A stretch of DNA of 64,000 nt, taken from contig CAYMBN010000003.1 of assembly GCA_964388715.1 (NCBI GenBank), positions 1-64,000 on the forward strand, in the 5' to 3' direction. This document shows, piece after piece, positions 14,599 through 36,102 of the stretch. How positions within the stretch are numbered: position 1 is the first letter of the stretch; each line of letters opens with the position of its first letter. The position numbers and the translations under genes were made by a program. The notes under the pieces were generated by a model that did not search any database, was not told the DNA's origin, and saw only the letters and a list, made by a program, of their open reading frames with translations. Origin of the DNA: an uncultured Methanosarcinales archaeon (lineage in GTDB: Archaea; Nanobdellota; Nanobdellia; Woesearchaeales; CAYMBN01).

Positions 14599-15372
14599 AT
14601 GACACAAACAATGAAAAATTACATTAAAAAATTACTTGATAAAGAAACAAGGCTTGATGGAAGAAAAACAGATGAATACAGAAAACCAATCAAAGTGGAA
14701 TATGGTGTTGTGAATTCAGCTGAAGGTTCTGCTCGTGTTACAATTGGTGAAACAGTTGTTTTGGCAGGAGTTAAACTTGAAGTGATTGCACCTTATCCAG
14801 ATGTTCCTAATAAAGGGACAATTATTGTTGGAGCAGAATTATTACCATTATCAAACCCAGAGTTTGAACCTGGTCCACCTGGAATACAAGCAATTGAAAT
14901 AGCAAGAGTTGTTGACAGAGGGATAAGAGAAAGTGAAGCACTTGATTTTGCTAAAATGTGTATCACACCTGGTGAAAAAGTATGGGCTTGCTTAATAGAT
15001 ATTTGTCCTATTAATGATGCAGGTAATCTGTTTGATGCAGGTGCATTAGCAGTTTTAGCAGCATTAAAAGATGCAAAATATCCTAAGTATGACGGTGAAA
15101 AAATTGATTACAGTGAAAAAACAAAAGAGTCATTGCCATTGTCAAAAGAACCATTATCATGTACTGTTCTTAAGATAGGTGATCATTATGTTGTTGATCC
15201 TGTTACTGAGGAAGAAAAAGTATATGATGCAAGGCTATCTGTAGCTGCACTTAAAGATGGTTCATTATGTGCAATGCAGAAAGGTGGTGAAGAGCCATTA
15301 ACATCAGAGCAATTGCTTGAAATGGTTGATCTTGCTGTTAAGAAAACAAAGGAATTAAGAAAAAGTATGTAG
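14599..15372 (+). CDS. rrp42: Exosome subunit Rrp42
   Basis: RLDGRK, AEGSARV, FEPGPP, EIARVVDRGIRES, AMQKGG. Confidence 0.96.
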   Translation: MTQTMKNYIKKLLDKETRLDGRKTDEYRKPIKVEYGVVNSAEGSARVTIGETVVLAGVKLEVIAPYPDVPNKGTIIVGAELLPLSNPEFEPGPPGIQAIEIARVVDRGIRESEALDFAKMCITPGEKVWACLIDICPINDAGNLFDAGALAVLAALKDAKYPKYDGEKIDYSEKTKESLPLSKEPLSCTVLKIGDHYVVDPVTEEEKVYDARLSVAALKDGSLCAMQKGGEEPLTSEQLLEMVDLAVKKTKELRKSM

Positions 15373-15376
15373 TAAA

Positions 15377-16363
15377 ATGGATTTGTTTTACAAACAAGGT
15401 AAAGGAAGTAAATTCATTAAAAAAGTAGCAACATTAGATGATTATCCTAAAGTTGAAGGATATGATTTTAGTAAAAAGTTTAATTTTAATGAATTTATTG
15501 ATTCTTTTTTTTCTACTGGGTTTCAAGCGACAAGATTAAAGGTTGCAGTGGATGTAATCAAACAAATGCGTGATAACAAAGCAAAGATTACATTTGGTTT
15601 TACTTCTAACATGATTTCATCTGGTTTGCGTGAGATAATAACTTATCTTGTCAAGAATAAGATGGTTGATCTTATTGTGACTGCAGCTGGTGGGATTGAA
15701 GAAGATATGATCAAAACATTGAAACCGTTTGTGATTGGGACGCAAAGAATGCCTGGTTCTATGTTGTTAGAGAATGGAATTAATAGAATAGGTAATATAT
15801 TTGTACCTAATGATCGTTATCTTTACTTTGAAAAGAAGTTTGTGCCTTTTTTGGAGGAGGTATATAGGAAAAAGAAGTCAATAAGTGGTGTTGAGTTTTT
15901 TAGTGAGCTTGGTAAGTATGTTAATGATAAAAGTTCTTTTCTTTATTGGGCTTACAAGAATAAGATTCCTGTGATATGTCCTGCAATAACAGATGGTGCA
16001 TTAGGTGATATGTTTTATTTTTTTAAGAAAAAACACTCTGATTTTAATGTTGATGTTATAAGTGATATGGTAGAGATAGTTGATAAAACAATGAATGCAG
16101 AGAAATCTGGGTTGATTGTTTTGGGAGCAGGTGTTGTAAAACATCATGTTCTTAATGCAAACATATTCAGAGAAGGAGCTGATTATACTGTTTTGATTAA
16201 CACAGGGAATGAGTTTGATGGTTCTGATTCTGGAGCTGACCCTGAAGAATCTGTATCATGGTGTAAGATAAGGCCAAATTCAGAATATGTTAAAGTAAAT
16301 TGTGATGCAACAATTGCATTTCCTTTGATTGTGAAAGCTGGGTTTGTTGATTATAAAAGTTAA
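15377..16363 (+). CDS. dys: Deoxyhypusine synthase
   Basis: TSNMISSGLRE, GGIEED, NRIGNIFVPN, DGSDSGA, ESVSWCK active-site Lys. Confidence 0.96.
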   Translation: MDLFYKQGKGSKFIKKVATLDDYPKVEGYDFSKKFNFNEFIDSFFSTGFQATRLKVAVDVIKQMRDNKAKITFGFTSNMISSGLREIITYLVKNKMVDLIVTAAGGIEEDMIKTLKPFVIGTQRMPGSMLLENGINRIGNIFVPNDRYLYFEKKFVPFLEEVYRKKKSISGVEFFSELGKYVNDKSSFLYWAYKNKIPVICPAITDGALGDMFYFFKKKHSDFNVDVISDMVEIVDKTMNAEKSGLIVLGAGVVKHHVLNANIFREGADYTVLINTGNEFDGSDSGADPEESVSWCKIRPNSEYVKVNCDATIAFPLIVKAGFVDYKS

Positions 16364-17223
16364 TCATAAAGAACTTGTTGTAAACCTTGTTTTTTATATT
16401 CTAATCTGAGCAGGTCTAGTCCTCTTTTAATGATTTTCATCATATCATCAAGAGTTGTATTGAATTTTTCAGCTGTTTGGGTTAAGGTTTTATACTCACC
16501 ATCAGTAAAACCAAACTTATATTCAATTGCCTTTCTTGCTTTTTCATCTAATTCCGGTAAAGCACTACGTATTTTTTGCCTGAAAATATTATTAATTGCT
16601 TCTTGTTGAACATCTACTGAAGTATCAATGATTACATCTTCGAGATATTGGCCATCACCAGTTGGAGTGTAGAATGGTATTGGTGTTTTGGTAGCTGTCA
16701 TAACTTTCTTAACTTCTTCATAAGGTAGTCCTGATTCTTCAGAAAGTTCACGTAAACTTAGATGTCTTCCATATTGTTTTGCGAGTCTTGTTGATAATCT
16801 TTTTAGTTTACTTGCACTTTCCCAAATATGAACTGGTACTCTTATATCTCTTCCTTGGTATTGAATCTCTCTTCTAATTGCTTGTTTTGCATGCCAGAAA
16901 AGTTTACTCCTTAGTTGATCTCCTGTTTTTCCCTTAAAATTCTTAATTACTTTAATTAAAACTTTATTTGCAGCTTGAATATAATTAATAAAACTGTCTT
17001 GTGAATAAGAATATCTTTTTGCTACATTTACAGAAATCATTAGATAATCTTTTACTAATTTATGAACTGCTTCAGGATCTCCTTGTTTTGCTAATGCAAT
17101 TAATCTTTCTTTATCATGAGGATTAAGTCGTGGAATTCTTCTAACTTCATTAAGATATTGTTTGACAATATCTTCTGTGAAAGTGTCTTTTTCTCCTAGG
17201 AAATCTCTTATTCTGTATATCAT
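16360..17223 (-). CDS. Divergent sigma70-family protein (copy D)
   Basis: Region 1.2 DIVKQYLNEV, WHAKQAIRREI, RDIRVPVH, region 3 and region 4 KFGFTDGEYKTL; regions 2.2 and 4.2 degenerate. Confidence 0.88.
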   Translation of the reverse strand: MIYRIRDFLGEKDTFTEDIVKQYLNEVRRIPRLNPHDKERLIALAKQGDPEAVHKLVKDYLMISVNVAKRYSYSQDSFINYIQAANKVLIKVIKNFKGKTGDQLRSKLFWHAKQAIRREIQYQGRDIRVPVHIWESASKLKRLSTRLAKQYGRHLSLRELSEESGLPYEEVKKVMTATKTPIPFYTPTGDGQYLEDVIIDTSVDVQQEAINNIFRQKIRSALPELDEKARKAIEYKFGFTDGEYKTLTQTAEKFNTTLDDMMKIIKRGLDLLRLEYKKQGLQQVLYD

Positions 17224-17245
17224 TTTTAGAAAGAATAGGTGTTAT

Positions 17246-17253
17246 TTTATAAA
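17246..17253 (-). promoter_or_regulatory. Archaeal BRE/TATA promoter of sigma copy D
   Basis: GATAAAA-TTTATAAA starting 30 nt upstream of ATG 17223 (leaderless spacing). Confidence 0.65.
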
Positions 17254-17258
17254 TTTTA

Positions 17259-18152
17259 TCAATCTAAAGGATATTCTCTTATTTCTCTTATTCTGCTAGA
17301 GTGTCTTAGTCTTAGTGTTGCTTTTGCTTCAATACCAATTATTTCTTTTGTTGTTACTCCAAATTGTTTGCATACTTCTTCTAATGAGTGTTGTGTACCA
17401 TCTTCAAGACCAACTCTGTATTTGAGAATGTTTGCTTGTCTTTCTGTTAAAAAGTCTAAAACATCTTTAACTCCTACTTTAAGACTTGATTGGTATGCAT
17501 TATCCATTGGTGTTTGTGCTTGTCTTTGTTCAGGAAAATCTCCTAGCAAAGAATCTTGTTCACCTATTGGTGTTTCTAGTGAGATTGGATCCATTGCTGT
17601 TTTTAGGATTTCTTTTACTTTTTGGACTGGGAATTGAGCTGACCTTGCGATTTCTTCATGAGTTGGATTTCTTCTATAATCTCCTGTTAGTCTTTCTGTT
17701 ATTTTTCTTATTTTGTTTATATCATCAACAAAATTTCTAGGTATTCTAATTGTTTTTTCTTGCTCTGCAAGTGCTCTTGTGATTGCTTGTCTAATGTGCC
17801 AAATAGCATATGATTGGAATTTGTATTTAGGATTGTAATTATATTTTTCAATTGCTTTTATTAATCCTTGATTGCCTTCTGCAATTAAATCAAGGAGAAA
17901 ATATCTGTTGTTTGCATATCCTCTTACAATGTTTGGGACAAGTTTCAGGTTTGCATTGATAAGTTTTTGTCTTGCTTCAAGATTCATGTTTTTGAATAAT
18001 CTTTTTTCTTCTTGATAAGGAAGATTAGGAACTTCACTAACTGCTCTTAGATACATTTTCACTGAATCTTCTAAAGGTTGTTCTCTATTTTGATCTATGA
18101 CTCTTGTTTTTTGAGCTATTCTTCCCTGTCCTGGTTTATTGTTTTTATACAT
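17259..18152 (-). CDS. Sigma70-family protein (copy C), altered -10/-35 recognition residues
   Basis: [61 protein letters not shown]. Confidence 0.93.
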   Translation of the reverse strand: MYKNNKPGQGRIAQKTRVIDQNREQPLEDSVKMYLRAVSEVPNLPYQEEKRLFKNMNLEARQKLINANLKLVPNIVRGYANNRYFLLDLIAEGNQGLIKAIEKYNYNPKYKFQSYAIWHIRQAITRALAEQEKTIRIPRNFVDDINKIRKITERLTGDYRRNPTHEEIARSAQFPVQKVKEILKTAMDPISLETPIGEQDSLLGDFPEQRQAQTPMDNAYQSSLKVGVKDVLDFLTERQANILKYRVGLEDGTQHSLEEVCKQFGVTTKEIIGIEAKATLRLRHSSRIREIREYPLD

Positions 18153-18197
18153 TTTATTAAGATATCGCCTCTAATTTATAGTGAATTATGGCTTTTA

Positions 18198-18205
18198 TTT
18201 ATAAA
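18198..18205 (-). promoter_or_regulatory. TATA box upstream of sigma copy C
   Basis: TTTATAAA in the 82-bp intergenic region; second TATAAAT at 18174-18180. Confidence 0.5.
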
Positions 18206-18234
18206 TTTAATTGAAAAATAGTGGTTTTTTAGAA

Positions 18235-19350
18235 TTAGTCTAAGTAATAATCTCTTAATTCTTTTGCTCTGCTTGGGTGTCTTAGTTTTCTTAATGCTTT
18301 TGCTTCAATTTGTCTGATACGTTCTCTTGTGACACCAAATAATTTACCTACTTCTTCTAATGTGTGTGGCACACCATCTTCTAAACCAAATCTATATTTG
18401 AGTACTTTTGCTTCTCTATCTGTTAATGTTCCTAGAACTCTTCTAATTTGTGCTTTGAGCATTGATTGAAATGCACCGTCCATTGGACTTTCTGAATCCT
18501 TATCTTCAACAAAATCAGCAATAGTACTATCACCTCCTCCAACAGGTGTTTCTAAAGGAACTGGATCTTTACCTCTTTCTAGAGCTTGTTGAACTTTGTA
18601 AATGGGTTGTCCTGAAGCTTTTGCAATTTCTTCATAAGTTGGATCTCTGCCATATTCTTGGGTTAATTTTCTTGCTGTTTTTCTTAATTTATTTATTGTT
18701 TCAACCATGTGAACAGGAATCCTAATTGTTCTTGCTTGGTCTGCAATTGCTCTTGTAATTGCTTGTCTAATCCACCAGATGGCGTATGTTGAAAATTTGA
18801 AACCTTTTCTGTATTTAAATTTTTTAACAGCTTTTAATAATCCTCTATTCCCTTCTTGAATTAAGTCAAGGAAAAGTAATCCTCTTTTTAGGTATTTTTT
18901 TGCAACAGATACAACTAATCTTAAATTTGCATTGATTAGTTTTTGTCTTGCTTCATAACTCCCTTGTTCAATAAGTTCTGCTAAATCTCTTTCTTCTTTT
19001 TCATTAAGAAGTGGAACTTCACCAATTGATTTTAAATACATTTTAACTGAATCTTCTAATGTGGCTAGTTCAGTGTGTTGATCAGGTGCTTGTTTTTTTG
19101 GTTTTTTTGTATATGGTTTTTCTTCTTTGTATCTAACTTCAACACCAGCTTTTAATATCTCTTCAAGAACATATTCCATTTGTGTTGAAGTGATTCCATC
19201 TGGTAAATCATCACTTAACCAATCATATTTTAAAGAATTTCCTGATTGTTTACCTTGTTGAATATAGGTTTTAATATATGGATTAAGTGCTTTTTCCCAT
19301 TGTGATCTTTCAGTAATATCCTCTAACTTTGTTTTTTTTGGATTTGACAT
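18235..19350 (-). CDS. rpoD: RpoD/SigA-like primary sigma70 factor (copy B)
   Basis: Region 1.1-like [105 protein letters not shown]. Confidence 0.97.
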
Positions 19351-19385
19351 TCTTCTATCTATGACTTGCTGAATTGAATTCTATA

Positions 19386-19393
19386 TTTATAAG
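19386..19393 (-). promoter_or_regulatory. TATA box upstream of sigma copy B
   Basis: CTTATAAATA ~43 nt upstream of ATG 19350. Confidence 0.55.
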
Positions 19394-19440
19394 GTTAATT
19401 GAGGAATATTTTAGTTTTTACCAAGAATTAGGGACAAATT

Positions 19441-21495
19441 TTAACCTAAATAAAATTCTCTTAATTGTTTGCTTCTGCTCGGATGTCTTAGTTTTCTTAA
19501 TGCTTTTGCTTCAATTTGTCTGATACGTTCTCTTGTAACACCAAATATTTTGCCAACTTCTTCTAATGTATGTGGACAACCATCTTCTAAACCAAAACGG
19601 TATCTGAGGACTTTTGATTCTCTTTCTGTTAAAGAATTAAGAACTCTCCTTATTTGTGCTTTTAACATTGATTGGAATGCAGTGTACATTGGATCTTCTG
19701 TTTTTTTATCTTCAACAAAATCTCCTAATGTTGAATCTTCGTCACCAATTGGTGTTTCTAATGATATTGGGTCCATTGCTGTTTTTAGGATTTCTTTTAC
19801 TTTGTGTACTGGAAGTTGAGCTGCTTTTCCAATTTCTTCATGAGTAGGATCTCTACCATATTCTTGTGTTAATTTTCTTGCTGTTTTTCTTAGTTTGTTT
19901 ATTGTTTCTACCATGTGAACTGGTATTCTTATTGTTCTTGCTTGGTCTGCAATTGCTCTTGTTATTGCTTGACGTATCCACCAGATTGCGTATGTTGAGA
20001 ATTTGAAACCTTTTCTGTATTTGAATTTTTTAACAGCTCTGATTAAGCCTTGGTTGCCTTCTTGAATTAGGTCCAGGAAAAGTAAACCTCTTTTTGTGTA
20101 TTTTTTTGCAACAGATACTACTAAACGTAGATTTGCCTCGATTAGTTTTGTTCTTGCTTCTAAGTTTCCTTGTTCAACAAGCACTGCTAACCTATATTCT
20201 TCTTCTACTTCAAGAAGTGGAACTTCACCAATTGCTTTTAAATACATTTTGACTGAATCTTCAAGAGCTTCTTTACTTAATTCAATACCAAACTGATTTA
20301 CTTTTTGTTTTCTTCTTCTTGCTGCTTTTAGTAAGGTATGTTTTCTTCTTTGTTCATCTTGTACTTCAATACCTGCTTCCATTATTGATGCAAGAAGTTC
20401 ATTAAGTGTGACTGTTTCAACTGCATCTGGTAGGTTATCATTAATCCATTTGTATGAAATAACTCCTGTTTTTTGTCCTTCTGCAAGGCATTGGTCAAGG
20501 AATATTTGCATACTTTTTTCTGAAGATACCTTTTTGTATTCAACATATTCTTCAGCAACTTTTTTAGCAGTTGTGCTAATTTCTTGATCTGTTAAAGGTT
20601 TTGTATATTGTTCAATATCTTGTTGTTGTTGCCAGTTATTTTTTACATCTTTAATGAATTTGTCAACTTGTGCTTCGAGTTTTGATTCATCTCTGTCTTT
20701 TAGAAGCCAGGTGAAGTCATAATCCTTTTTGAGAAAATAGTATGCTTTATTGACCTTTTCTAATCCTCTAAGTTTTTTTAAAAAACTTTCAGCATCATAT
20801 TCTTTTTTACCAGAAACCCTTAGTTTAATACCTGTGAGATTCTTTAAAACATTTTTAACAGATAGTTCGTTTTTTTCTTCTTCTGTAGACATACTTTTAG
20901 CTAGATGTGTATTAATACCATAACATTCTAATGTGTACCAATTAATCTCATCTCCATATTGTTCAAGTTCTGTTAGAAGTCTGTTAATGATTGTTGCGTA
21001 TTGTTTAGCTGTGTATTCTGGTTGAGGTTGTTTTTTTGCTTTGTATTCTAACAGGTTGGTTACAGTTGCTGTTTTTGTTACTGGTTCTTTTGTTAAGACT
21101 TGTTTTAATCTTTTGAGACTTTTTGTTGGGATGACATCATACTCTTTTCCTTTGTATTCAACTGTTTCAACTACATCTTCTTCATATAATTCTGCAACTT
21201 GTTGAATTGTGAGATTGAGTGCTTTTGAAATTTCTCTGATATTACAATACTTGATTAAAGTAAGTGCTTCTGAATCAAATCTTTCAAATACATCTCCTAG
21301 CATATGGTATAATAAACTTATTCCTAAGAATTGGTTATCTTCTGATAATATGTGATCAAGATCTGCTTTTAGGCCTTTTCTATACTTGAATGGTAGAATT
21401 CCCATTGGGTATAATTCATATGGGTTGATCTCTGTTTTTAATGGTGTAACTGTGCCTACTTTAGACTGATATTCTCCTCTTTTTGGTTTAACCAT
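19441..21495 (-). CDS. rpoD: RpoD/SigA-like sigma70 factor with ~320-aa N-terminal extension (copy A)
   Basis: C-terminal regions 1.1 ([18 protein letters not shown]), 1.2, 2, 3, 4 intact; extension has HTH-like [20 protein letters not shown]. Confidence 0.96.
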
Positions 21496-21517
21496 AATGT
21501 GTAAGAAAGAATGAGCA

Positions 21518-21525
21518 TTTTTAAA
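21518..21525 (-). promoter_or_regulatory. Archaeal BRE/TATA promoter of sigma copy A
   Basis: AAAGC-TTTAAAAA starting 30 nt upstream of ATG 21495. Confidence 0.6.
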
Positions 21526-22384
21526 GCTTTCGTCTTAACATTACAAAACTATTGTCCTGTGCGACTTGTAGTTTAAAGTAGTCTGAATATGTTATTTGAT
21601 CTTCTAGTGGTTGGATTTGGTTTAGGTAGTTTTCTGTTTCTGTGATACTGTCAACAACTTCTTGATATATTCTTTCTCCAATGAAATGTACTAAAAAACG
21701 TAAAAGTTTACCTTGTTTTGAATCAATTCTTCCTTTTATATGTTCATTGTTGATGTAATAATTGTTATCATCAAATGATATATCTCCTACATCTCTTGGA
21801 GGGTAGACTCTTTTAGCAAGGATAAATTGTTTAAAATAATCATCAATTGATTTTAGTTGGATAAGGTCTCCTAAGTCATCTTCTAATACTTTGACTTTAT
21901 TAGATTCCATTGCCTTTAAGATGTCTATGATTGATATTTTTGAGTAGATTTCTTGTTTTCTTAGCTCTTTGAAGATCTGTCTTACAGGAAGGTATTTATC
22001 TTGTTGTGCTTTTTCTAGTTGTTTTTGGATGATTTGTTGAGGAGATGGTTTATACAAGTCATTTAGGATAGGGAGGTCGCTACATAATATAAAATCTTCA
22101 TTATTAATTTCTTCTACAACTACTTCAATGCCAGTGTAGAGATCATCTTGGTTGACATTTGGCATTAGGTCCATGATTAAGAATGGATCAATATGTGTAT
22201 CATAATCTGGGTTTGTTTCACGCTGTTGTAAGTAATCAATAAAAAAACCAGGAATAACAAACTTTTTATTTGATTCTAGGAAAAATGTTTTTTCTAGATC
22301 TCCTAAAATAGATGGATCTTTTAAAATGCCTTGATTTATTATTTCATCAATCTTGTAATTTTGTTTTAAATTAATTTGTGTCAT
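21521..22384 (-). CDS. Protein with shared N-terminal [11 protein letters not shown] domain plus one Xis-like wHTH
   Basis: N-terminal ~110 aa paralogous to the 765- and 1062-aa neighbours; [11 protein letters not shown]...[11 protein letters not shown]. Confidence 0.8.
22121..22198. repeat. 78-bp perfect repeat, copy 1 (copy 2 at 24414-24491)
   Basis: Identical from tacttcaatgccagtgtagagatc to ggatcaatatgtgt, inside a ~165-bp highly similar block. Confidence 0.92.
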
Positions 22385-24668
22385 TTTTGTTTGTTATATA
22401 TTTTTGTGTTAACAATCTTGCTTGTTCTAGTTCAGGATTAAGTTCACAAGCTTTATCTAGGCTTCCTGCTTGAGTTATTTGTGAGTAATAGTCCAGGAAT
22501 GCTTTATGAATCCATATTTGAACACCAGATTTAAAAGATATTCTTGGAATTTTAAGTCCTTTAATATATTGTAAATATTTGTTAGAATCACTGATTTTAT
22601 TAAACTTTCTAAAATAATCTATAGCTCTGTTTCCTGTCATGAATTCAGGTCTAGTTATTACTTCTATTTTTAGCTTTAATTGTACTAAGTAATTTTTTAA
22701 TTCTGTTTTTTCTCTATGATAAGTGCTAATAGAGATTGTTTCTTTTACTTCTTCGTAGCTTACTTCTTCATTCCAGTTAACTGTTTTTAGAACTCTTAGA
22801 ACTTTTTGGTATTTTTCATCTTGCTTTAGTTGAGTTTGCCAATCAATATCTTGTGTTTCATCTAGTTTTTCTTCTAAACTTTGTTTTTGTTTGATTAAAC
22901 TGTTTACCTCAACACCTGCTTGTTTTAATTGTGGATAAAGTTCATATGCTTTTTTTAAGCTTCCAGCATCTACTATTTTCTGATAATGATCAAGGAACAC
23001 TTTGTGATACCATTTTGCCACTCTTCTTCCATGTAAAATTGGAATTTTGAATTTTTTAGCAAATTCACGCAAAGATTTTGCAATTACACCTCTTTTGCCA
23101 GTATATACTAAATAATCTAAAGCTATTTCTGTCCTTACAAAATTAGGATTAGCTTTTATTTCCATAATTAGTTTTTCTCTTAGTAAGTACTCATTAAGGT
23201 TTTTCCTTACTCTGTAAAAGGTATTTTCAGAAATTACATCCCATACTGACCCACATTCAATCTCTTCTTTGTTTTTGATTCTTTCTAGAAGTTTTACTAA
23301 TCCTTTGTATCTTTTATTTTTATTTAATTTATCTTGCCAATCAATATCTCCTGTTTCAGCAAGTTTTTTTTCTAAGTTTTTCTTTATTTGGATTATTCTG
23401 TTGACTTTTTTACTTATTTCTTTTAGTTCTGGATAAAGTTCATAAGCTTTTTCTAAGCTTCCTGCTTTAACTATTTGTTTATAATATTCAATAAACTTTT
23501 TGTGAATCCATTGGGTTTTGAATTTTCCACGTATTATTGGAATTTTGAATTCTTTGATAAAAGCAGAATATCCGTCATACCGGATTCCTTCACGTTTTCT
23601 GAAATATATAGAGCCTCTGTCTAAACCTAGGAAATTGTGGTCTGCTTTTAGTTCTAAACATAGTTTTAGGTCTAACAAATAAGTTTTCATTTTTCTTCTG
23701 AATCTTCTGTAACATGTGTTCTCCATAATATCTTCAACAGCTTTTAATCCTTGTTCTATTCCATCTGCAACTATGTTTAATGCCTTAATTATAGCTTGAT
23801 ATTTTTTGTTTTGTTTCAAATCAAATCCATCCAGTGTTTCTTCTTCTAAACTTTGCATTTGATTATTTATTTTTTCTGTTAGTGATTTTGCTTTTTCTAA
23901 CTCTGGAAATAATTTGTAAATTTCTTTTAGGTTATCGCTTTCTATTATATCATTATAATGGTCAAGAAATTTTCTATGGGTCCATTTAGTCTTTCCTGTG
24001 CCATGGATTATTGGAACTAGTTGAAGAAATGCTGTATAATCATTAGAACATAGAGTGGTAGTAATATTTGTTCTAGCATATTCTTCACCTTGTCTAGCTT
24101 TAAAAAAATCTGGATTGGCTTCTAATTCCATATTGATCTTTTGTTTTGTTAGGAATTTGTGCATGCTGAATTTATGTCGTGTGTAGCTGCAATGTGACAT
24201 AATTGGTTTAACCATTTTATAATCAATTTTTTCATCATCTATGTTTAGAAGTCTTAAAATTTTTTGATATTTTTCATCTTGTTTTAGTTCAGTCATCCAT
24301 TCTGGTTCAAAATGTTTGAAAATCTCTTGTTCAATTTTTTCACCATACAACTCATTTAGGATAGGTAAGTCACTGCATAATATAAAATCTTCATTATTAA
24401 TTTCTTCAACAAGTACTTCAATGCCAGTGTAGAGATCATCTTGGTTGACATTTGGCATTAGGTCCATGATTAAGAATGGATCAATATGTGTGTCATAATC
24501 TGGGTTTGTTTTACGTTTTTGTAGGAAGTCAGCGAAAAACCATGGTACCCAGAATTGGTTTTCATCTTCTACAAAAAATACATTATCTAAGATATTTGGT
24601 CCTTTTATAATATGATTCTCTACTAAATCATCAATACTGTATAATTGTTCTTGTTTGATTAGTATCAT
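22371..24668 (-). CDS. Shared N-terminal domain plus four ~160-aa tandem repeats with Xis-like wHTH
   Basis: Repeat LKQDEKYQK...ANPDF...IPII.G...W.HK.FLDHY...AGSL.KAYELYPEL occurs four times. Confidence 0.85.
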   Translation of the reverse strand: MILIKQEQLYSIDDLVENHIIKGPNILDNVFFVEDENQFWVPWFFADFLQKRKTNPDYDTHIDPFLIMDLMPNVNQDDLYTGIEVLVEEINNEDFILCSDLPILNELYGEKIEQEIFKHFEPEWMTELKQDEKYQKILRLLNIDDEKIDYKMVKPIMSHCSYTRHKFSMHKFLTKQKINMELEANPDFFKARQGEEYARTNITTTLCSNDYTAFLQLVPIIHGTGKTKWTHRKFLDHYNDIIESDNLKEIYKLFPELEKAKSLTEKINNQMQSLEEETLDGFDLKQNKKYQAIIKALNIVADGIEQGLKAVEDIMENTCYRRFRRKMKTYLLDLKLCLELKADHNFLGLDRGSIYFRKREGIRYDGYSAFIKEFKIPIIRGKFKTQWIHKKFIEYYKQIVKAGSLEKAYELYPELKEISKKVNRIIQIKKNLEKKLAETGDIDWQDKLNKNKRYKGLVKLLERIKNKEEIECGSVWDVISENTFYRVRKNLNEYLLREKLIMEIKANPNFVRTEIALDYLVYTGKRGVIAKSLREFAKKFKIPILHGRRVAKWYHKVFLDHYQKIVDAGSLKKAYELYPQLKQAGVEVNSLIKQKQSLEEKLDETQDIDWQTQLKQDEKYQKVLRVLKTVNWNEEVSYEEVKETISISTYHREKTELKNYLVQLKLKIEVITRPEFMTGNRAIDYFRKFNKISDSNKYLQYIKGLKIPRISFKSGVQIWIHKAFLDYYSQITQAGSLDKACELNPELEQARLLTQKYITNKNDTN
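24414..24491. repeat. 78-bp perfect repeat, copy 2
   Basis: Identical to 22121-22198. Confidence 0.92.
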
Positions 24669-27600
24669 TTTCTTTTCTTTGGTTGTGGAACTGATAAAAA
24701 TAATAATGGAAGGCTTTGATAAATATCACTTTTACTTATGTATGTTATCACATCACTTTTTTTGTAGGGTTGACCTTGTTTATTTAATCTAGGTGTTCCG
24801 TTGTCATATGCAGCACTTTTGATTGTATCTTTATTTAATCCAGAAAGTTCTGAAAGTTCATCATAAGTAAACATTTCCTGTTGTTCAAATGCTAATATTC
24901 TTTCATCAATGAAATTTTTTAATGAGTTTAAGTTATATGATCCTTGCTTCTGACGTATTTTAGTTCTTTTTATAAGTTTTTTAAAGTGTGTTTCTCTGAA
25001 CAATTGAAAATCTAAGATAATTGTTCTTTTTCTTCCTACATATTGGGTGGCTTTTTGTGAGAGTTTTTCACCTAAGTATTCCAAAATGTACATTATTGCT
25101 AGTTTTTCAGGAAGAAATTCTGGTTCTTGTTTGAGTTGTTCTTTGTGTTTGTTGATTATTTCTGCTTGACAATAGCCTGCTTGGATGTTAAACTCATGTT
25201 CTCCTAATTCTTGTAATCTTTGTGTGAGTAAGCTCTTTTTAACACCTTGTTCTTTGCATATTCTTTTGATGGTATATAATAAGTCTTTTCCATGTTTGTC
25301 TTTAATTACTCCTAAATCTTGCACTTTTTCAATAACTCTGTTTACTTTTGTTTTTTTATAAAAATTTACTTTTTTTCCAGTAAGAGGACTAATAACTTGT
25401 TTGTCCATATCAAAAAGTTGTGGGAAGTAAAAATTAAATGCTTTTGAACTACCGTATCTTTTTGTAACTAAAGCATTTCCTAGTAAATGTACTGCTCTTC
25501 TTTTATTGTAGTAGTTTATGTGATTCTTATAATATGCAATGAACCTGTCAATAAAAATCATTAATTCTTCGGCAATTCTTCTTATATTTTCGTATTTTCT
25601 GATGTTTATTCCTTTTACTCTTAGTGTTGGAAAATTCTTTTCTTCTCTCCAATCTAATTTTTGATCAAGATCTTTTTCAAGTTGAACAATGTGTTCTAGT
25701 GCACCTAAATATCTGTCGGCAAAATTATATCTTATCTCTTTGTCATTACATTGTTTGGCTACTTCTATACATTCTAATTTCTTATCTAAAATATATTGGG
25801 ATATGTCTTCTTTTGTGATTTGTTTTTTTGTAGTCTTTCCTAAAATATGGTCAATTGATTCAACAAAACAAAATCCTTCCTCAAGTAATTCTTTATCTTT
25901 TTGTCCACCTAATAACATTAAGATACCTTGTTTTTCTAGTTTAGTCATCTGTTTGACTTTCTCTAATGTGTAAAGGAAAGGGTTGCCTTCAAAGTCAACT
26001 AGGATTCCTTCTTCATCCAGTTGTTTTTTTATTTCTTCAAGTTCTTGTTCAATAGAAGGATTGTAAAAACCTACTACTTCACCAGAAATTGGATGTTGTA
26101 ATTGGTGATCTGGTGTTAGGTCAATATGTTTTCTGTATAATTCATAAGCTGAATTATGTTCTCCAATTAGTTCATATTTTATTTTTGACTCAATTCTTTT
26201 ATCCATAACATAATTTACTTGGGCGTTATTAAAATCAATTTCTACTCTGATCATGTGTTCTATGTCTTTTATTAATGGATGTAATTTTCTCCCAATAAAT
26301 GTGAGATCTGACCTTCTTACTTTACTTAAATTTACATCCCCTCTTTTTAATATATAATCTGGGCCATTTTCAGTTAAATCAATTAGTTGTCTGAATACAT
26401 CTAGTTTAGGTTCTGTTGATCTTTTTACTCTAAATCTGAGGGTTTCATCTGTAATATTTTCTAATTCATCTTGTAAATTATTATATCTTTCAAGTAATCG
26501 TTCTTTGTTAAATTCGTACTCTAACTCTCTTCTTGCTTCATCATGTTTAGAAAATTCTTTTTCAACAACACCTTCCTTATGATATCTAAGCAATTCTTGT
26601 TTGTCAACAACCTCAAGAGCTCCTATTCTTATTGTTTTAAGTTTTTTAACTTGTCTTATTGGGACTAATCGCTTGTGTTTTACAAATCTAATTGGGATAT
26701 ATTCAAAAGGGTAATCTTGGATATAATATATTTTTTCTCGTCTTTTTTGTTTATGTTTTTTACGTGTTGGTTTGTATCCTGGTTTAAATATCTCTGGGTT
26801 GTCTTCTTTTAAAATAACTTCTTCAAGTCCGTTAGGGTCAAGGGATATATTTCTTGTTTTAATTTTCCAAGTCCTAACCTGCTGTGCAACTGATTCTGAA
26901 GTTACTTTCAATAATTCAGCCAATTCAACAAAATTGTATTTTTCTTTTCCAACACATCTTAATTCTTTTATTTGTTCAATTTCATCTTGATATAATTGGT
27001 TATCTTTATCTAAACTGATAAGGCCTTGTCTTACAGATCTTATAAAAATTTGTTCACAAGTTCCTAATTCTTTACCTTTTATTCCAAGTGATGCAAAAAA
27101 ATGTCCATAGAATCTAAATAGACTTCTTTTTAGTTTGATAATCTCTGATTCAGGGATTCTTATTGTTTTTGTTTTAAAATTATATGCTTGGGCTTCTCCT
27201 TTTTTTGTATAAGAAGCAACTGTGTTATCAGTCACTCCTATTATTTCATTTACAGTTTTTCTATCAAATAATCTTTCACCAAAATGTTCTTTTTTAAATC
27301 CAAAATGTTTTTCTAGTTTTGTTTCAAGTTCTTGTCTTTCATATACAAAAGGATTGGCACCAAATGTTTTTTTTACTTTTTTTCCTGGTTTTTTTCTTTT
27401 TATATTACATTTCTTTTTCATGTGTTCCCATACTATAATGGAAACATTCAGTAATTTGAGTATTTCTGGTGTTGTATATTCATCTTGAATGAATTTTTCA
27501 ACTATGACTGGTTCATCATACAATGTGTTTAGGATTGATAATTCACTCGCTGGGACAAAATCTTGGCCTTCTATTTCTTCTACAAGGACTTCAAGGCCAG

Positions 27601-27853
27601 TAAAGAGATTATCTTGGTTGACATTATGCATTAGGTCTAAAATTATGAATGGGTCTATGTTTGTATCATAGTCTGGGTTTGTTTCACGTTGTTTTAAGAA
27701 TTCAAGAACAAAGCCTGGGATTAGTGTTCCATTGTTATGTGACTTTAAAACAAATGTTTTTTCCTGGTCCCATAATACAGTTGGGTCTTGTAATACATTT
27801 GATTCTAATAAATAAGTAAGATTGTAAAGCTTCTGCTCTTGAATTCTTATCAT
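24665..27853 (-). CDS. 1062-aa protein: shared N-terminal domain plus multiple Xis/MerR-like HTH modules
   Basis: FDRKTVNEIIGVTDNTVASYTKKGEAQAY...IRIPESEI, YNFVELAELLKVTSESV, FTYDELSELSGLNKDTI; internal ~235-aa duplication. Confidence 0.85.
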   Translation of the reverse strand: MIRIQEQKLYNLTYLLESNVLQDPTVLWDQEKTFVLKSHNNGTLIPGFVLEFLKQRETNPDYDTNIDPFIILDLMHNVNQDNLFTGLEVLVEEIEGQDFVPASELSILNTLYDEPVIVEKFIQDEYTTPEILKLLNVSIIVWEHMKKKCNIKRKKPGKKVKKTFGANPFVYERQELETKLEKHFGFKKEHFGERLFDRKTVNEIIGVTDNTVASYTKKGEAQAYNFKTKTIRIPESEIIKLKRSLFRFYGHFFASLGIKGKELGTCEQIFIRSVRQGLISLDKDNQLYQDEIEQIKELRCVGKEKYNFVELAELLKVTSESVAQQVRTWKIKTRNISLDPNGLEEVILKEDNPEIFKPGYKPTRKKHKQKRREKIYYIQDYPFEYIPIRFVKHKRLVPIRQVKKLKTIRIGALEVVDKQELLRYHKEGVVEKEFSKHDEARRELEYEFNKERLLERYNNLQDELENITDETLRFRVKRSTEPKLDVFRQLIDLTENGPDYILKRGDVNLSKVRRSDLTFIGRKLHPLIKDIEHMIRVEIDFNNAQVNYVMDKRIESKIKYELIGEHNSAYELYRKHIDLTPDHQLQHPISGEVVGFYNPSIEQELEEIKKQLDEEGILVDFEGNPFLYTLEKVKQMTKLEKQGILMLLGGQKDKELLEEGFCFVESIDHILGKTTKKQITKEDISQYILDKKLECIEVAKQCNDKEIRYNFADRYLGALEHIVQLEKDLDQKLDWREEKNFPTLRVKGINIRKYENIRRIAEELMIFIDRFIAYYKNHINYYNKRRAVHLLGNALVTKRYGSSKAFNFYFPQLFDMDKQVISPLTGKKVNFYKKTKVNRVIEKVQDLGVIKDKHGKDLLYTIKRICKEQGVKKSLLTQRLQELGEHEFNIQAGYCQAEIINKHKEQLKQEPEFLPEKLAIMYILEYLGEKLSQKATQYVGRKRTIILDFQLFRETHFKKLIKRTKIRQKQGSYNLNSLKNFIDERILAFEQQEMFTYDELSELSGLNKDTIKSAAYDNGTPRLNKQGQPYKKSDVITYISKSDIYQSLPLLFLSVPQPKKRK

Positions 27854-27854
27854 T

Positions 27855-27914
27855 TTTCATTTCAAATTTCTTTGAAATTTGTAATTAATAGGAAATTCCA
27901 TTTCCAATTCATTT
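27855..27914 (-). repeat. 60-bp intergenic double-hairpin repeat, copy 1
   Basis: 53/60 identical to 52025-52084; minus strand GGAAAT-GGA-ATTTCC and CAAATTTC-AAA-GAAATTTG. Confidence 0.85.
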
Positions 27915-27916
27915 GA

Positions 27917-30817
27917 TTAAGTTTTCTGCATTAATCCTCTAAGAATAATTTTAGCTCCTTCTCTTTTAACTGTTCCAGAATCTGGGAAATCTTCTATGTT
28001 AGTTGCTTTTCTGCTTTGGACTGCTCTAAAAACATCTCTTTTTTGAATAGATGGGTCTAATCTTGTAGCAGTGGATGGAAGTGATCTAACAAGGATTTCA
28101 TCTCCTTCTAGCATAGAATCGATTTTTGAGTCAATACTATCTGCTTGAGCAGCAGCTGGTTCTGGTGCTGCAGGTTTAACAGGAGGGATTGGTTCTTGTA
28201 CTGCTACTGGTTCAGCTCCTGCTTCAGCTGGAGTGCCTGGTTTGTAAGGTGTTTCTGGTTTTTTTGGAACAGGTGTTACTTTTATTGGTGGTTTACCTCT
28301 TGTTCCTTTACCTCTTTCACTAATTATTCCCTCAATTTTGTTTCCATATTGTTCTTTTACTTTTTCAATATTACCAGTTTCTAGAACAAATATTTCTCCT
28401 TTATATCCATGAACCCTTTGTTTTTTAATTAAGCCTGATAAACCATCTGTGTTTTTATATAATTTCTGAAACTCTGTAACATCTAAATTAAAAATTGTTG
28501 CAACTGGTTTTGAACCTATAATGTGCTTTGATGTTGGAGTTAAATGATCTTTATAATATTCTTTAGCTTTATTTATTATCTCATCTAATTCTGCTCTTGT
28601 TGCAACACACACAGGAACCATATTTTGACCAACTAGTTTATCTTCTTTTTTTGGTTTACCAATTACTTCTTTTCTTATTAAAAATTGATATTTTGAAATA
28701 GTAAAATCAAAGTCAAGCTTTCCATTGATATAATCTATATGTTCTTTTTGACCATATATCTTTTCTTCTGTTGGTTCTTCTGGTTTAGTTCCTTCTATCT
28801 TAGCTAAAATATCTGAAAGTTCGCCTGTTTCTTGTTCAGCTTTTCTTTTGAGATATTCTGTTATTTCTGGCATGTTGTGGCTGAGTGAAACTATTTGCTT
28901 TGTGTCAATGTTTCTTTTTAATTCAAGATAAGCAAAACTCAAAAGTTTGTCAAGTGCAATCTTTTGTTCTCCATCAATTTGTTCTATTATAGGAAGATAT
29001 TCTTCCCATTTCTCAGAATCATCTGGTGAATGTCCAAATAGGGTTGCTACTTGATCTCTTGATAAATATATTTCACCATTAAGTCCTTGTTCTCTTTCTT
29101 CTTTAACCTTTTTATCAATCCTTACATAATCATCTATAGTCTCAATAGCATCAAAAACACTATCTGGATTCATGTACTCTTCTTTTTCTTTAATTCCTTG
29201 GCTATTAAGGATTCTTACAAATAAATTTTCAAATTTGTCTAGATCAATATCTTTAGAATAAAATTCTGTTAGTGATTTCAAAACATCTAGTATATTATAT
29301 ATTGTTTTGTGTTTTTCATCTTGGCTGGCTGCATCTTCTCCAACAGTTTTATTGATCTCTATTTCTATCTGAGAGTATCGTGCTTCTACTTCTGGTAGAT
29401 CTGGTTCTGGAGGGATTGTAGCTGGTTCTTCTTCCTTACTAACTTCACCAACAAACTTATACTTTGTTTCAATTTTTTCATCAGTGATTAATTTTTCTAG
29501 AACACTTGTATTCATTACTTTTCCAATTCTATGCTTAAAACTCCTTCTACTGGGTTCATTTTTGTATTCTTCAGAAGCGTCTTGTAGTAGATTTGAATAT
29601 TTTCTACGCACTGTTTCAGCACTTATACCTAAAATATCAGCAGTTAAAGCTATACTTATTTCTGTGTTTCTTGTTAAATTGTAATCAATTTTTGGTTCTG
29701 CTGTTGCCTTAGGATGTCCTGGAGTGAATAATTCTGAATATTTTAATATTTGAGTTGCGGTTATCCCTTTTTTGTAATCTAATTTCTTAACTCCTCTTTT
29801 TTTGTTGTGTCTTTTTACTCTTGAAAATAATGTTTTATAGTTTACACCAGATAATTTTTCTATTTGTGAAAGAGTGTACTTCTTTCTTGGGTGACTTCTG
29901 TCAAGCCAAGGTAGGATTTCTTCAGGAACTTTAGGTTTAGCTTTTTCAACTGTTTTATCAATTGTTTCAGAAACAATAGGTTCTGTTGGAACAGCTTTAT
30001 GTTCCTTCCCAGTAATCTGATCTACAACACTAGCAGGACAGTAACCCATCTTGATAAGATTTTCATGTACTTTGGATTCTTGTTGCTTTTTGATTAATTC
30101 TTCTTTGTTTAAACCAGTTAGTTCAACAGCTTTATCAAGTGAGTATAGTAATGGTTGACCAGCAACATCCATTACTTCAGGTAGTTTTTCTCTTACAACA
30201 TGCTTATATAATGATGATCTGTTGACTGGTGTTGGTCTTACATCAAATGTAATATTGTATTTTTTACCAAATTCTTGTAATGCATTAATAATAACTTGGC
30301 TTATTTGTTCATATTTATCAGCAGGGTGTCCTTCTTGTTGTGTATCCAACACAAATCTTTTGAAGTATCTGTTATCTTGTTTAGTTTCAATACCTTCTAG
30401 AGTTAAATTATTGAGTAATTCACTTTCACCGAGGATAGGTAAGATTACTTCAAAAGTATGACCATGGTTAGAAAGAACAAAATAGGTTGGGATTGTGTTT
30501 TCTTCATCAAAGCATGCAAACTTTTCCATTAATCTTTTTTCTCCTTCAGAAAGGTAGCTTTCGTCTAGTTCAATGGAATCTTGATTTAATTCTTGTCTAA
30601 ATGCTTTGAATCTTTCATATAAAAGTAATTCTTGATCAAATTTTTCAGGATCTTCTTGTCTAAGTGCTTCAACATGTTTGATTCTTTTATCAACTTCTTG
30701 GTATAATTTTTCAACAAGATCTGTTATGAGAAGATTTTTTCCTCTTATTGTGTTATCATGTGATTTTGAGTCTATTTGAGAAAAACCATTTGCAAAATAA
30801 TCAGCATTAATTTCCAT
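27917..30817 (-). CDS. 966-aa multi-HTH protein
   Basis: ATG 30817 behind GAGGTG; YSLDKAVELTGLNK, YTLSQIEKLSGVNYKTL, ISIALTADILGISAETVRRKY; Pro/Ala-rich linker near C-terminus. Confidence 0.82.
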   Translation of the reverse strand: MEINADYFANGFSQIDSKSHDNTIRGKNLLITDLVEKLYQEVDKRIKHVEALRQEDPEKFDQELLLYERFKAFRQELNQDSIELDESYLSEGEKRLMEKFACFDEENTIPTYFVLSNHGHTFEVILPILGESELLNNLTLEGIETKQDNRYFKRFVLDTQQEGHPADKYEQISQVIINALQEFGKKYNITFDVRPTPVNRSSLYKHVVREKLPEVMDVAGQPLLYSLDKAVELTGLNKEELIKKQQESKVHENLIKMGYCPASVVDQITGKEHKAVPTEPIVSETIDKTVEKAKPKVPEEILPWLDRSHPRKKYTLSQIEKLSGVNYKTLFSRVKRHNKKRGVKKLDYKKGITATQILKYSELFTPGHPKATAEPKIDYNLTRNTEISIALTADILGISAETVRRKYSNLLQDASEEYKNEPSRRSFKHRIGKVMNTSVLEKLITDEKIETKYKFVGEVSKEEEPATIPPEPDLPEVEARYSQIEIEINKTVGEDAASQDEKHKTIYNILDVLKSLTEFYSKDIDLDKFENLFVRILNSQGIKEKEEYMNPDSVFDAIETIDDYVRIDKKVKEEREQGLNGEIYLSRDQVATLFGHSPDDSEKWEEYLPIIEQIDGEQKIALDKLLSFAYLELKRNIDTKQIVSLSHNMPEITEYLKRKAEQETGELSDILAKIEGTKPEEPTEEKIYGQKEHIDYINGKLDFDFTISKYQFLIRKEVIGKPKKEDKLVGQNMVPVCVATRAELDEIINKAKEYYKDHLTPTSKHIIGSKPVATIFNLDVTEFQKLYKNTDGLSGLIKKQRVHGYKGEIFVLETGNIEKVKEQYGNKIEGIISERGKGTRGKPPIKVTPVPKKPETPYKPGTPAEAGAEPVAVQEPIPPVKPAAPEPAAAQADSIDSKIDSMLEGDEILVRSLPSTATRLDPSIQKRDVFRAVQSRKATNIEDFPDSGTVKREGAKIILRGLMQKT

Positions 30818-30963
30818 ACTAAACACCTCTGAAAAGCAAAAATCGTTTATCTTATTTAAATTTTTTCTTTGATTTGTCGTCGGAAAAAGTGGTAAAAACA
30901 GCAATATTTTATCTAAAATTTTAAATATGAATTAGTATTTATAATTGAATTAGAGGTGTTCAA

Positions 30964-31914: not shown

Positions 31915-31941
31915 TTTTTTTATAGTCAAACATAATTATTG

Positions 31942-32955: not shown

Positions 32956-33217
32956 AAAATTTTTTATTGTTAGGTTTTATTTAAATTTTTTCTTTTTTTC
33001 TAAAAAAATTAATTTTTTGTTTATTTTTTTATCGTCGAGAAAATTTTTTCCAAAAAATTGTAAAAACTTTTATAAAAAAAATTCTTATTTTTTTCAATTT
33101 TTTTCTAATTTTTTCCGACGAGGAATTTTATAAATAAAAACATTTATATACTACTTTTTTTATAATTATATTATAAAAATAAAAAACACACAAAAAAATA
33201 AAAAGAGGTCAAAATTA

Positions 33218-34174: not shown

Positions 34175-34213
34175 AGGTTAATTTTATATATTTCTGGAGT
34201 ATTTTGAGACATA

Positions 34214-35089: not shown

Positions 35090-35090
35090 A

Positions 35091-36002: not shown

Positions 36003-36102
36003 NNNNNNNNNNNNNNNNNNNNNNNNNNNNNNNNNNNNNNNNNNNNNNNNNNNNNNNNNNNNNNNNNNNNNNNNNNNNNNNNNNNNNNNNNNNNNNNNNN
36101 NN
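36003..36102. other. Assembly gap (100 N)
   Basis: Run of N between two convergent genes whose stop codons are missing. Confidence 0.99.

Follow-up and report, generated by a model that had tools for sequence, protein, structure and literature searches.

Bacterial-type sigma factors in DPANN archaea

Textbooks separate bacterial from archaeal transcription initiation by the use of sigma factors in the former and of TBP and TFB in the latter. Archaeal sigma factors were reportedly first described by Rinke et al. in 2013, to whom a review gives the credit, and sigma-70 genes of DPANN archaea have been in print since that year. In Table S3 of Castelle et al. (2021), the DPANN sigma-70 family fam00359 counts 221 sequences with a median length of 280 amino acids (aa), 49% of them annotated as K03086 (primary sigma), and occurs in 39% of the 196 genomes from Woesearchaeota, 38% of the 90 from Pacearchaeota and 38% of the 37 from Aenigmarchaeota, in agreement with the initial annotation of the DNA described here, which did not consider the presence of such genes new in itself. 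As presented there, mis-binning was excluded, no anti-sigma factors were found and the mechanism was left open (Castelle et al., 2021). In this study, we describe four tandem sigma-70 genes, S1 to S4, on the minus strand of a 64-kb window (by which we mean the whole stretch of DNA analysed, positions 1 to 64,000 of contig CAYMBN010000003.1). Like the members of fam00359, they are bacterial-type sigma-70 genes beside archaeal neighbours in a Woesearchaeota genome, with no anti-sigma factor recognised nearby. In contrast to a family with a median of 280 aa, two full-length copies with region 1.1 and two short diverged copies stand here in one tandem array, an arrangement of which we found no description in the parts consulted of Castelle et al. 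(2021) or in the other literature consulted on DPANN sigma factors. The phenomenon is already in print, and the locus leaves that picture unchanged; what is added is the tandem arrangement of four genes, a map of constraint, archaeal promoters and two N-terminal peculiarities, a region 1.1 that is not acidic and an orphan extension. The locus is nevertheless a good test object, since within 5 kb it offers one copy that is nearly canonical, another full copy and two natural variants that seem re-specified. S3 and S4 are intact group-1-type sigma factors in an archaeal chromosome, and the four are real, expressed-looking and selectively maintained sigma-70 genes of a Woesearchaeota-like archaeon.

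S4 (19441–21495) encodes a sigma factor of 684 aa in which the Pfam models for regions 1.1, 1.2, 2, 3 and 4 match at aa 334–671, and S3 (18235–19350) encodes one of 371 aa, a Firmicutes-SigA-like length, with all five Pfam regions. The two open reading frames (ORFs) lie exactly where the initial annotation had placed two RpoD/SigA-type proteins, and all the motifs it quoted occur in both translations; its interval, 18235–21495, covers only this pair, and the remaining two members of the array had been missed. These are S2 (17259–18152), a diverged paralogue of 297 aa with Pfam regions 2, 3 and 4 and without region 1.1, and S1 (16360–17223), the most diverged paralogue with 287 aa, in which Pfam recognises regions 3 and 4 only. 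In S3 and S4 the models Sigma70_r1_1, r1_2, r2, r3 and r4 are found in order, all above their gathering scores, with E-values for Sigma70_r2 of 4.6e-22 and 3.3e-22, respectively. Region 2, responsible for core docking and for melting and reading the −10 element, spans aa 451–521 of S4 (19933–20145, 78.5 bits) and aa 138–208 of S3 (18727–18939, 78 bits), where the key residues are kept; region 4, the −35 helix-turn-helix, spans aa 618–671 of S4 (19483–19644, 85.1 bits) and aa 305–358 of S3 (18277–18438, 68.4 bits), where the −35-reading residues are kept. All of these coordinates are on the minus strand. Region 1.1 is recognisable by sequence in both proteins, as Sigma70_r1_1 (PF03979) scores 25.9 bits in S3 (aa 26–89; 19084–19275, minus strand) and 28.6 bits in S4 against a cut-off of 22.5.

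Among described systems, the bacterial RpoD/SigA proteins of the short Firmicutes type (8x6f_E, 7ckq_F, 7l7b_F) have the same five regions in the same order as S3 and S4, fall in the same length class as S3 (368–390 aa compared with 371), and have docking, −10 melting and reading, extended −10 and −35 residues identical to those of S3 and S4. S3 aligns through residues 25–368 to the solved SigA chain 8x6f_E with an E-value of 9e-110 and matches 71 distinct PDB sequences at E-values of 1e-20 or lower. TIGR02393, the NCBIfam equivalog-domain model for the RpoD C terminus (cut-off 354), is passed by S3 (365.1 bits) and S4 (376.8 bits), and S2 (250.3) and S1 (123.4) fall below it; the NCBIfam RpoD-type models align to aa 14–283 of S1 below their cut-offs, and the superfamily model TIGR02937 reaches 48.2 bits there against 42.9. 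Unlike SigA, S3 and S4 are encoded by an archaeon behind archaeal promoters, have a non-acidic region 1.1 and a basic linker, and lie in a window without core enzyme genes; S4 moreover has a 333-aa orphan extension. Both also fall short of the full-length RpoD equivalogs NF006666 and NF004208 (455.9 and 454.8 bits for S3, 480.4 and 480.7 for S4, against 572 and 555). The earlier description of two near-textbook group-1 proteins including region 1.1 therefore holds for the five Pfam regions and TIGR02393, but not for the full-length models nor for region 1.1 itself, which is non-acidic and, as described below, shows a ratio of nonsynonymous to synonymous differences near one.

At the protein level S3 and S4 are 66% identical, S2 is 51% identical to S3 and 54% to S4, and S1 is 25–31% identical to the others; three-copy DNA repeats with spacings of 976 and 1206 nt mirror this paralogy. 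S2 and S4 are nearly identical over part of region 3 (17560–17640 and 19740–19820), with 87% nucleotide identity in a 30-codon window; a recent gene conversion is unsupported there, as synonymous divergence in that segment (0.34) is no lower than elsewhere. Two other kinds of sigma factor were compared. The group-2 factor RpoS does not fit, with TIGR02394 scores of 293.5 bits for S3 and 303.9 bits for S4 against a cut-off of 378.7. MzaA, the sigma-70-family protein of the MZA anti-phage system, resembles S4 in being long with an N-terminal extension before the sigma-70 core and was the only PADLOC match for S1–S4; NF041931 matched the sigma core alone (339.1 bits for S3 and 342.2 bits for S4, cut-off 800), and no other Mza component was found among the 10 proteins scanned, in which PADLOC gave only a weak mad1 helix-turn-helix (HTH) match in two ORFs upstream of the array (U3 and U4, below).

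Constraint on the sigma proteins and origin of the family

The conservation columns were defined from 81 bacterial RpoD (80 loci, mostly from Bacillota, and E. coli), among which 174 columns are at least 95% conserved and 181 are variable. S4 keeps 154 of the conserved columns and matches the consensus at 45 of the variable ones; the corresponding figures are 150 and 46 for S3, 104 and 33 for S2, and 68 and 16 for S1. We then mapped on E. coli RpoD what we take to be the functional residues for core docking (region 2.2), melting (2.3), −10 reading (2.4), extended −10 reading (3.0) and −35 reading (4.2). Both S3 and S4 keep L402, D403, Q406, E407 and N409 of region 2.2, F427, Y430, W433 and W434 of region 2.3, Q437, T440 and R441 of region 2.4, H455 and E458 of region 3.0, and R584, E585, R586, R588 and Q589 of region 4.2 (E. 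coli numbering). In S4, every listed residue of regions 2.2 and 2.4, together with F427, Y430, W433 and W434, agrees with the RpoD of E. coli, Listeria or Geobacillus; the exceptions in the two proteins are a conservative Y425F, which Listeria has too, and K414R in S4. S2, in comparison, carries Q406A, W434H, H455N, E458D, R584T, E585K, R586E, R588I and Q589G, by which all five region 4.2 readers are lost, and S1 carries D403N, Q406A, E407A, Y430K, W434H, T440R, H455N and E458D, with all region 4.2 readers changed. The two shorter proteins are thus altered at the residues that read the −10, extended −10 and −35 elements, and S1 also at core-docking residues; we infer that they are re-specified or partly disabled variants, which may provide alternative specificities.

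The clade formed by S3, S4 and three unnamed metagenome proteins (P0003–P0005, 65–68% identical to S3) departs from the consensus of 196 other RpoD (at least 85%) at only five columns, two of which are common to sister bacterial sequences and none of which falls on the listed docking or promoter-reading residues of regions 2.2–2.4 or 4.2. Between S3 and S4, region 2 is identical at 66 of 71 positions, with proportions of nonsynonymous (pN) and synonymous (pS) differences of 0.060 and 0.34 (pN/pS 0.18), and region 4 at 47 of 54 (0.089 and 0.29; 0.31). Region 3 follows with 50 of 74 (0.188 and 0.48; 0.39), and region 1.1 is identical at only 16 of 58 positions (0.434 and 0.45; 0.97). Whole-gene pN/pS values of 0.44–0.78 are uninformative, as synonymous sites are saturated and biased in composition at a GC content of third codon positions (GC3) of about 0.15, and for this reason the regional contrasts were used. 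These contrasts show that, since S3 and S4 were duplicated, purifying selection has acted on regions 2 and 4 of both copies, which dock on the core and read promoters, and has spared region 1.1. The retention of these surfaces in two paralogues had been taken initially to imply selection to work with a bacterial-type core; the selection is borne out by the conserved-column counts and by pN well below pS in regions 2 and 4, but the bacterial-type partner lies beyond what these figures establish.

The same constraint bears on the idea that the sigma genes are functionless leftovers of a transfer in slow decay. S2 and S1 keep only 104 and 68 of the 174 invariant columns and have whole-gene pN/pS values of 0.6–0.78, albeit saturated, as would be expected of decaying genes. 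However, none of the four ORFs is interrupted, although stop codons are common at a genomic GC content of about 30%; regions 2 and 4 of S3 and S4 are strongly constrained, each gene keeps its own promoter-like box, and a nearly identical fragment of S3 (P0002, 99% over 268 aa) lies on another contig. We give decay very little chance, and S3 and S4 are most likely working sigma factors.

In bacterial group-1 sigma factors, region 1.1 and the linker that follows it are strongly acidic and mimic DNA, and region 1.1 blocks DNA binding by free sigma. S3 and S4 depart from this. Over the 95 residues that precede region 1.2, the net charge comes to −1 in S3, 0 in S4 and −2 to −5 in P0003–P0005, compared with −9 to −19 in seven sister-clade sequences and −16.4 ± 5.7 in 108 other RpoD (those that could be scored among the 196, as in 74 no anchor motif was found and 14 were too short). 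The region 1.1-like segment of S3 has a net charge of +1, and the last 30 residues before region 1.2 reach +7 in S4 and +4 to +6 in P0003–P0005 against a mean of −7.0 in the 108. The strong acidity of group 1 is accordingly missing from both proteins, but its loss is not diagnostic, because 7 of the 108 other RpoD, mainly from Lactobacillaceae, are near neutral as well (above −6).

S4 is not a sigma factor throughout, a point that the initial annotation had missed: its first 333 residues (20497–21495, minus strand) are an orphan extension with no detectable homologue, and the sigma part comprises residues 334–684. The extension is coding, with no stop in its frame compared with 8–37 in the other five frames and GC at the three codon positions of 0.45, 0.27 and 0.19. 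Homologues were found neither in a word-index search nor with HMMER against 1.84 billion representatives (0 matches) nor in the Atlas. What was obtained were sub-threshold matches to DUF7645 and MerR_2 at aa 83–133 and one weak local match to the N terminus of P0004 (E 0.004); a single-sequence AlphaFold2 model had a mean predicted local distance difference test score (pLDDT) of 35, too poor for a fold search.

These N-terminal features invite the view that the proteins are polymerase-free, sequence-specific DNA-binding regulators that use regions 2–4 and, in S4, an added DNA-binding extension. A near-neutral region 1.1, a basic linker (+7 in S4 against a mean of −7.0) and the weak MerR/HTH-like signals of the extension agree with it. 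Nevertheless, both S3 and S4 retain every one of the region 2.2 surface residues that serve core binding only (L402, D403, Q406, E407 and N409), constraint is strongest in region 2, and the near-neutral bacterial RpoD just mentioned deprive the charge of diagnostic value. We consider such a role quite improbable.

The origin of the family was approached with database matches and two trees. Among the best 120 of 7995 scored matches to S3 were S3 itself, the 268-aa fragment P0002, unnamed metagenome proteins and RpoD with bacterial names only, the latter mostly 54–60% identical to S3; no archaeal name was among these 120. A scan of species-representative genomes with S3 gave at least 597 confirmed loci out of 598 stretches, of which the best 80 are all bacterial RpoD (51–66% identity), with neither an archaeal relative nor the genome of the window itself among them. 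A quick maximum-likelihood tree was built from 59 rows: E. coli RpoD, the four sigma proteins of the window, 33 taken from the 118 S3 matches other than self, and 21 taken from the 80 bacterial loci. A careful tree had 40 rows and omitted S1 because of its branch length of 10; tree rows were picked from the best matches. S3 and S4 branch within bacterial RpoD in both trees. S2, S3, S4 and P0003–P0005 form one clade, with a support of 98 in the Shimodaira–Hasegawa-like approximate likelihood ratio test of the quick tree and of 98/91 in the careful tree, and this clade nests with RpoD named Wallbacteria, Riflebacteria, Ozemobacter and Muiribacteriota in a 36-row clade with a support of 100; the wider clade with Wallbacteria, Riflebacteria and Muiribacteriota RpoD has 100/99 in the careful tree. 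The phylogeny against bacterial RpoD that the initial annotation had proposed as a check thus gives a well-supported placement. Forcing S1 into the S2–S4 clade slightly improved the likelihood (+5.8) and was not rejected (approximately unbiased test, p-AU 0.70).

The nearest named relatives of S3 are RpoD of Wallbacteria, Riflebacteria and Muiribacteriota (P0007, P0014, P0022, P0028, P0080, P0091 and L001), with 56–60% identity over most of S3 and, for the Muiribacteriota matches, 67% over 73–78%. Derived residues at positions 381 and 571 (E. coli numbering) are common to them and the S3/S4 clade, from which they differ in being bacterial and in having acidic N-terminal regions (−9 to −19). 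S4, with a branch length of 0.14 against 1.04 for S3, 4.0 for S2 and 10 for S1, is the slowest-evolving copy and the nearest to relatives elsewhere, being 87% identical to P0004 (over 362 aa), 82% to P0005 and 79% to P0003, compared with 62–64% to bacterial-type RpoD. The simplest history is one transfer followed by tandem duplications: a single bacterial rpoD entered the Woesearchaeota lineage horizontally, from a donor probably near Wallbacteria, Riflebacteria and Muiribacteriota, the nearest sampled relatives, and then expanded into a family of four.

Host setting and the polymerase partner

The window contains archaeal genes for L15e, PAC2, proteasome alpha, Pop5, SBDS, Rrp4/Rrp41/Rrp42-type exosome components, deoxyhypusine synthase and TrmB, and archaeal markers flank the sigma array without an assembly gap; the sole run of Ns, at 36003–36102, lies 14.5 kb from the array. 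S1 and the deoxyhypusine synthase gene lie tail-to-tail and share 4 nt at the 3′ end of S1. The organism names attached to the best 120 matches to the alanyl-tRNA synthetase, at 63–69% identity, are without exception Candidatus Woesearchaeota, Nanoarchaeota or Nanoarchaeia archaeon. The codon usage of the sigma genes is fully adapted to the host (GC3 0.13–0.17, host genes about 0.13–0.28). Bacterial contamination or a chimeric assembly could be suspected from the 54–66% identity of the proteins to bacterial RpoD. It is rejected because the genes are joined without a gap to archaeal genes, have host-like GC3 and have no near-identical bacterial gene among the 7995 scored matches, of which the best 120 were listed, or the best 80 of 597 loci; their archaeal-type promoters argue against it as well. 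Near-identity to a bacterial rpoD, which had been set beforehand as the finding that would expose contamination, was looked for, and the best bacterially named match to S3 is about 60% identical and the bacterial-type RpoD reach 62–64% with S4, so that contamination is excluded in that form and on the whole scarcely credible.

Archaeal TATA-like boxes precede all four sigma genes, a feature that the initial annotation had missed. On the minus strand, S4 is preceded by TTTAAAAAT (21517–21525) 30 nt before the start codon, which is the window-wide peak position; S3 by TTATAAATATA (19382–19392) 42 nt before the start codon; S2 by two TATA-like runs (18172–18212), TATAAATTA at −28 (18172–18180) and AATTAAATTTATAAATAAAA starting at −60; and S1 by the run ATAAAATTTATAAAATAA (17242–17259), with a TTTATA hexamer at −30. 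Across the window, TATA-like hexamers lie at −30 to −26 from the start codon in 17 of 51 genes, and other 5-nt bins hold 0–7. In the interval from −33 to −27 they occur in 19 of 51 genes, compared with 4.2 ± 1.9 after random rotation of the upstream regions, and none of 2000 rotations reached 19. A peak at about −30 suggests that transcripts in this genome may be mostly leaderless and archaeal in type. Further examples of TATA-like boxes in the window are found at 49256–49290, 40930–40945 and 52919–52950.

Sigma-70-type promoters are not enriched. A scan of 15000–33000 gave 94 sites against 85.4 ± 9.6 expected, and the whole window 308 against 357 ± 18 in block shuffles; at 10 or more matches of 12 there were 61 against 64 ± 9.5 over the whole window, and none of six 11-of-12 matches lay within 150 nt upstream of a gene. 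There is accordingly no sign in the window that its own genes would use sigma-70 promoters.

We propose that S3 and S4 would bind a multisubunit RNA polymerase by its clamp helices, through region 2.2, and by its flap, through region 4; they would open a −10-like element with the aromatic residues of region 2.3 and would read a −35-like hexamer. The partner would most likely present bacterial-type beta-prime and beta surfaces, since the docking and DNA-reading surfaces are essentially unchanged from sister bacterial RpoD, with only the five clade columns described above. The core may then be of bacterial type and not the archaeon's own polymerase, supplied in trans by a bacterial partner cell or by an unrecognised core elsewhere in the genome. 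We lean towards such a core outside the stretch because the docking surfaces are unchanged and sigma-type promoters are not enriched in the window. Taken as a whole, the explanation by transfer, duplication and working sigma factors, with a bacterial-type core that most plausibly belongs to a bacterial partner cell, is the best we can offer, and we put it tentatively at about one in three (roughly 35%). The choice of a bacterial-type core over the archaeon's own polymerase is its weakest step and is only weakly favoured. In the literature, Castelle et al. (2021) raise, in the parts consulted, the question whether some DPANN have bacterial hosts, and Vigneron et al. (2022), likewise as consulted in part, propose that Woesearchaeota prey on other cells and report peptidoglycan-degrading genes.

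Several points weigh against this explanation. The non-acidic region 1.1 and the 333-aa orphan extension of S4 depart from the bacterial mode, and the columns by which conservation was judged come mostly from Bacillota. Family searches of the window proteins found no RNA polymerase core subunit gene within the 64 kb. S3 and S4 share their −35 and −10 readers with housekeeping sigma factors, so that no redirection in a bacterial cell would be obvious, and a home-grown family of four paralogues would be more natural for regulation of its own genome. The transfer of S4 could also be more recent than assumed, if P0003–P0005 are bacterial. No secretion signal was seen in S1–S4 on inspection, and we know of no delivery route for sigma proteins to another cell. 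Bacterial core subunits for DPANN are unreported in the parts consulted of Castelle et al. (2021), and, according to the part consulted of PMC11291902, all cultivated DPANN have archaeal hosts.

The main rival view puts the sigma factors to work on the polymerase of the archaeon itself. In multisubunit polymerases the clamp coiled-coil serves universally as a conserved docking site, and region 2 could sit on that of Rpo1N, at the TFE/Spt5 site, the paralogues being alternative initiation factors or regulators. The archaeal-type promoters and the host codon usage of all four genes indicate that the archaeal cell itself produces the proteins. The family, grown within the lineage and changed by degrees in its promoter readers, resembles a regulatory repertoire, and a new partner could account for the loss of acidity in region 1.1 and for the orphan extension. 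Retention of the family in 38–39% of Woesearchaeota, Pacearchaeota and Aenigmarchaeota genomes points the same way (Castelle et al., 2021, Table S3). However, the docking residues of regions 2.2 and 4 have no adaptive change relative to sister bacterial RpoD, −35/−10-type promoters are not enriched in the 64 kb, where the TATA box at −30 dominates, and DPANN are described as having a normal set of TBP, TFB and TFE in the parts consulted of Castelle et al. (2021). No experiment is known to show a sigma factor bound to an archaeal polymerase, and in the literature searched we found no functional test of an archaeal sigma factor. A complex prediction of S4 regions 1.2–2 with residues 200–350 of Methanocaldococcus Rpo1N, used as a stand-in and run without controls, gave scores of 0.24 and 0.29 against a mark of 0.32 and counts neither for nor against. 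We regard a use of the archaeal polymerase as somewhat unlikely. In its most developed form, the archaeon would have its own sigma repertoire (a master copy, a second full copy and two re-specified ones) acting on the archaeal polymerase beside TBP and TFB in a hybrid initiation system, to which the non-acidic region 1.1 and the orphan extension would be adaptations; this form we hold to be unlikely.

Either outcome would be of wide interest: if the partner is a bacterial polymerase, the sigma factors would be cross-domain effectors acting on bacteria, and if it is the archaeal polymerase, a hybrid initiation system would exist inside an archaeon. If S1–S4 bind nothing, the puzzle of their conservation becomes sharper.

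Genes around the array

Directly upstream of the array, four large orphan ORFs fill 21521–30904 on the minus strand: U1 (287 aa), U2 (765 aa), U3 (1062 aa) and U4 (about 966–995 aa), with U1 ending 25 nt before S4. None matches a Pfam or NCBIfam family at threshold, U3 giving only a sub-threshold HTH_17 match, and U1 has only borderline matches to hypothetical proteins in the Atlas. U1–U3 share an N-terminal domain of about 110 aa, and U1 and U2 are 91% identical in DNA over 195 nt; a model of the shared domain from a three-row alignment had a pLDDT of 43, too poor for a fold search. U2 has repeats of about 160 aa, three clear copies and a more diverged first one, whose profile has no significant match to the S4 extension, U1, U3 or U4. 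HTH-like segments are common to U3 and U4.

This neighbourhood bears on whether the sigma array is the cargo of an integrated virus or mobile element and serves that element. Phage-carried sigma factors are able to redirect the polymerase of the host. In the parts consulted of a 2025 study (PMC12647753), two DPANN viral genes are annotated rpoS, one of them prophage-borne; the likeness to the array lies in sigma factors that possibly act on the polymerase of another genome and in the presence of several sigma genes with differing promoter readers. Next to the array, moreover, lie 9.4 kb of orphan ORFs that are rich in repeats and carry HTH-like signals, and the best PHROG match of the array is the phage sigma family phrog_351. 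Set against this, no capsid, terminase, integrase or other hallmark was present in the 10 proteins scanned, in which PHROGs gave, beyond the sigma matches, only a few weak sub-domain matches in U2 and U3 (E 5e-6 to 5e-3), and no flanking direct repeats bound the block. GC and GC3 are like those of the neighbours, and S1 overlaps a core archaeal gene. The best matches among phage records are 55–65% identical, no closer than bacterial RpoD, and S3 and S4 are far nearer to housekeeping RpoD than to RpoS. With neither viral hallmarks nor element borders found, we consider a virus-borne origin very doubtful.

Elsewhere in the window, several genes of bacterial type stand among the archaeal ones. 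On the minus strand, bacterial-type forms of triosephosphate isomerase, class II fructose-bisphosphate aldolase and GlpX-type fructose-1,6-bisphosphatase are clustered at 3928–6680. On the plus strand, 33218–36107 encodes two neighbouring GNAT proteins of the Acetyltransf_6 family and, after them, an ORF that matches LPG_synthase_C, a set of bacterial cell-envelope type; this last ORF runs into the 100-N scaffold gap, which makes its end unreliable. A prolipoprotein diacylglyceryl transferase (Lgt), typically bacterial, is matched over its full length (E 7e-68) at 49335–50084 on the plus strand, divergent from the adjoining alaS, and a 487-aa protein with a polysaccharide deacetylase domain (55308–56771, minus strand) extends the bacterial-envelope-related content. 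The tRNA-Arg(TCG) gene at 40820–40914 (plus strand) is 95 nt long, and the 71 positions of the Rfam tRNA model are spread over 93 nt in it, which is consistent with an intron. Lastly, an ORF that runs off the end of the window (57008–64000, plus strand) and exceeds 2330 aa combines a subtilase S8, an alpha/beta-hydrolase or lipase-like segment and a PKD domain, and is probably a surface or secreted protein.

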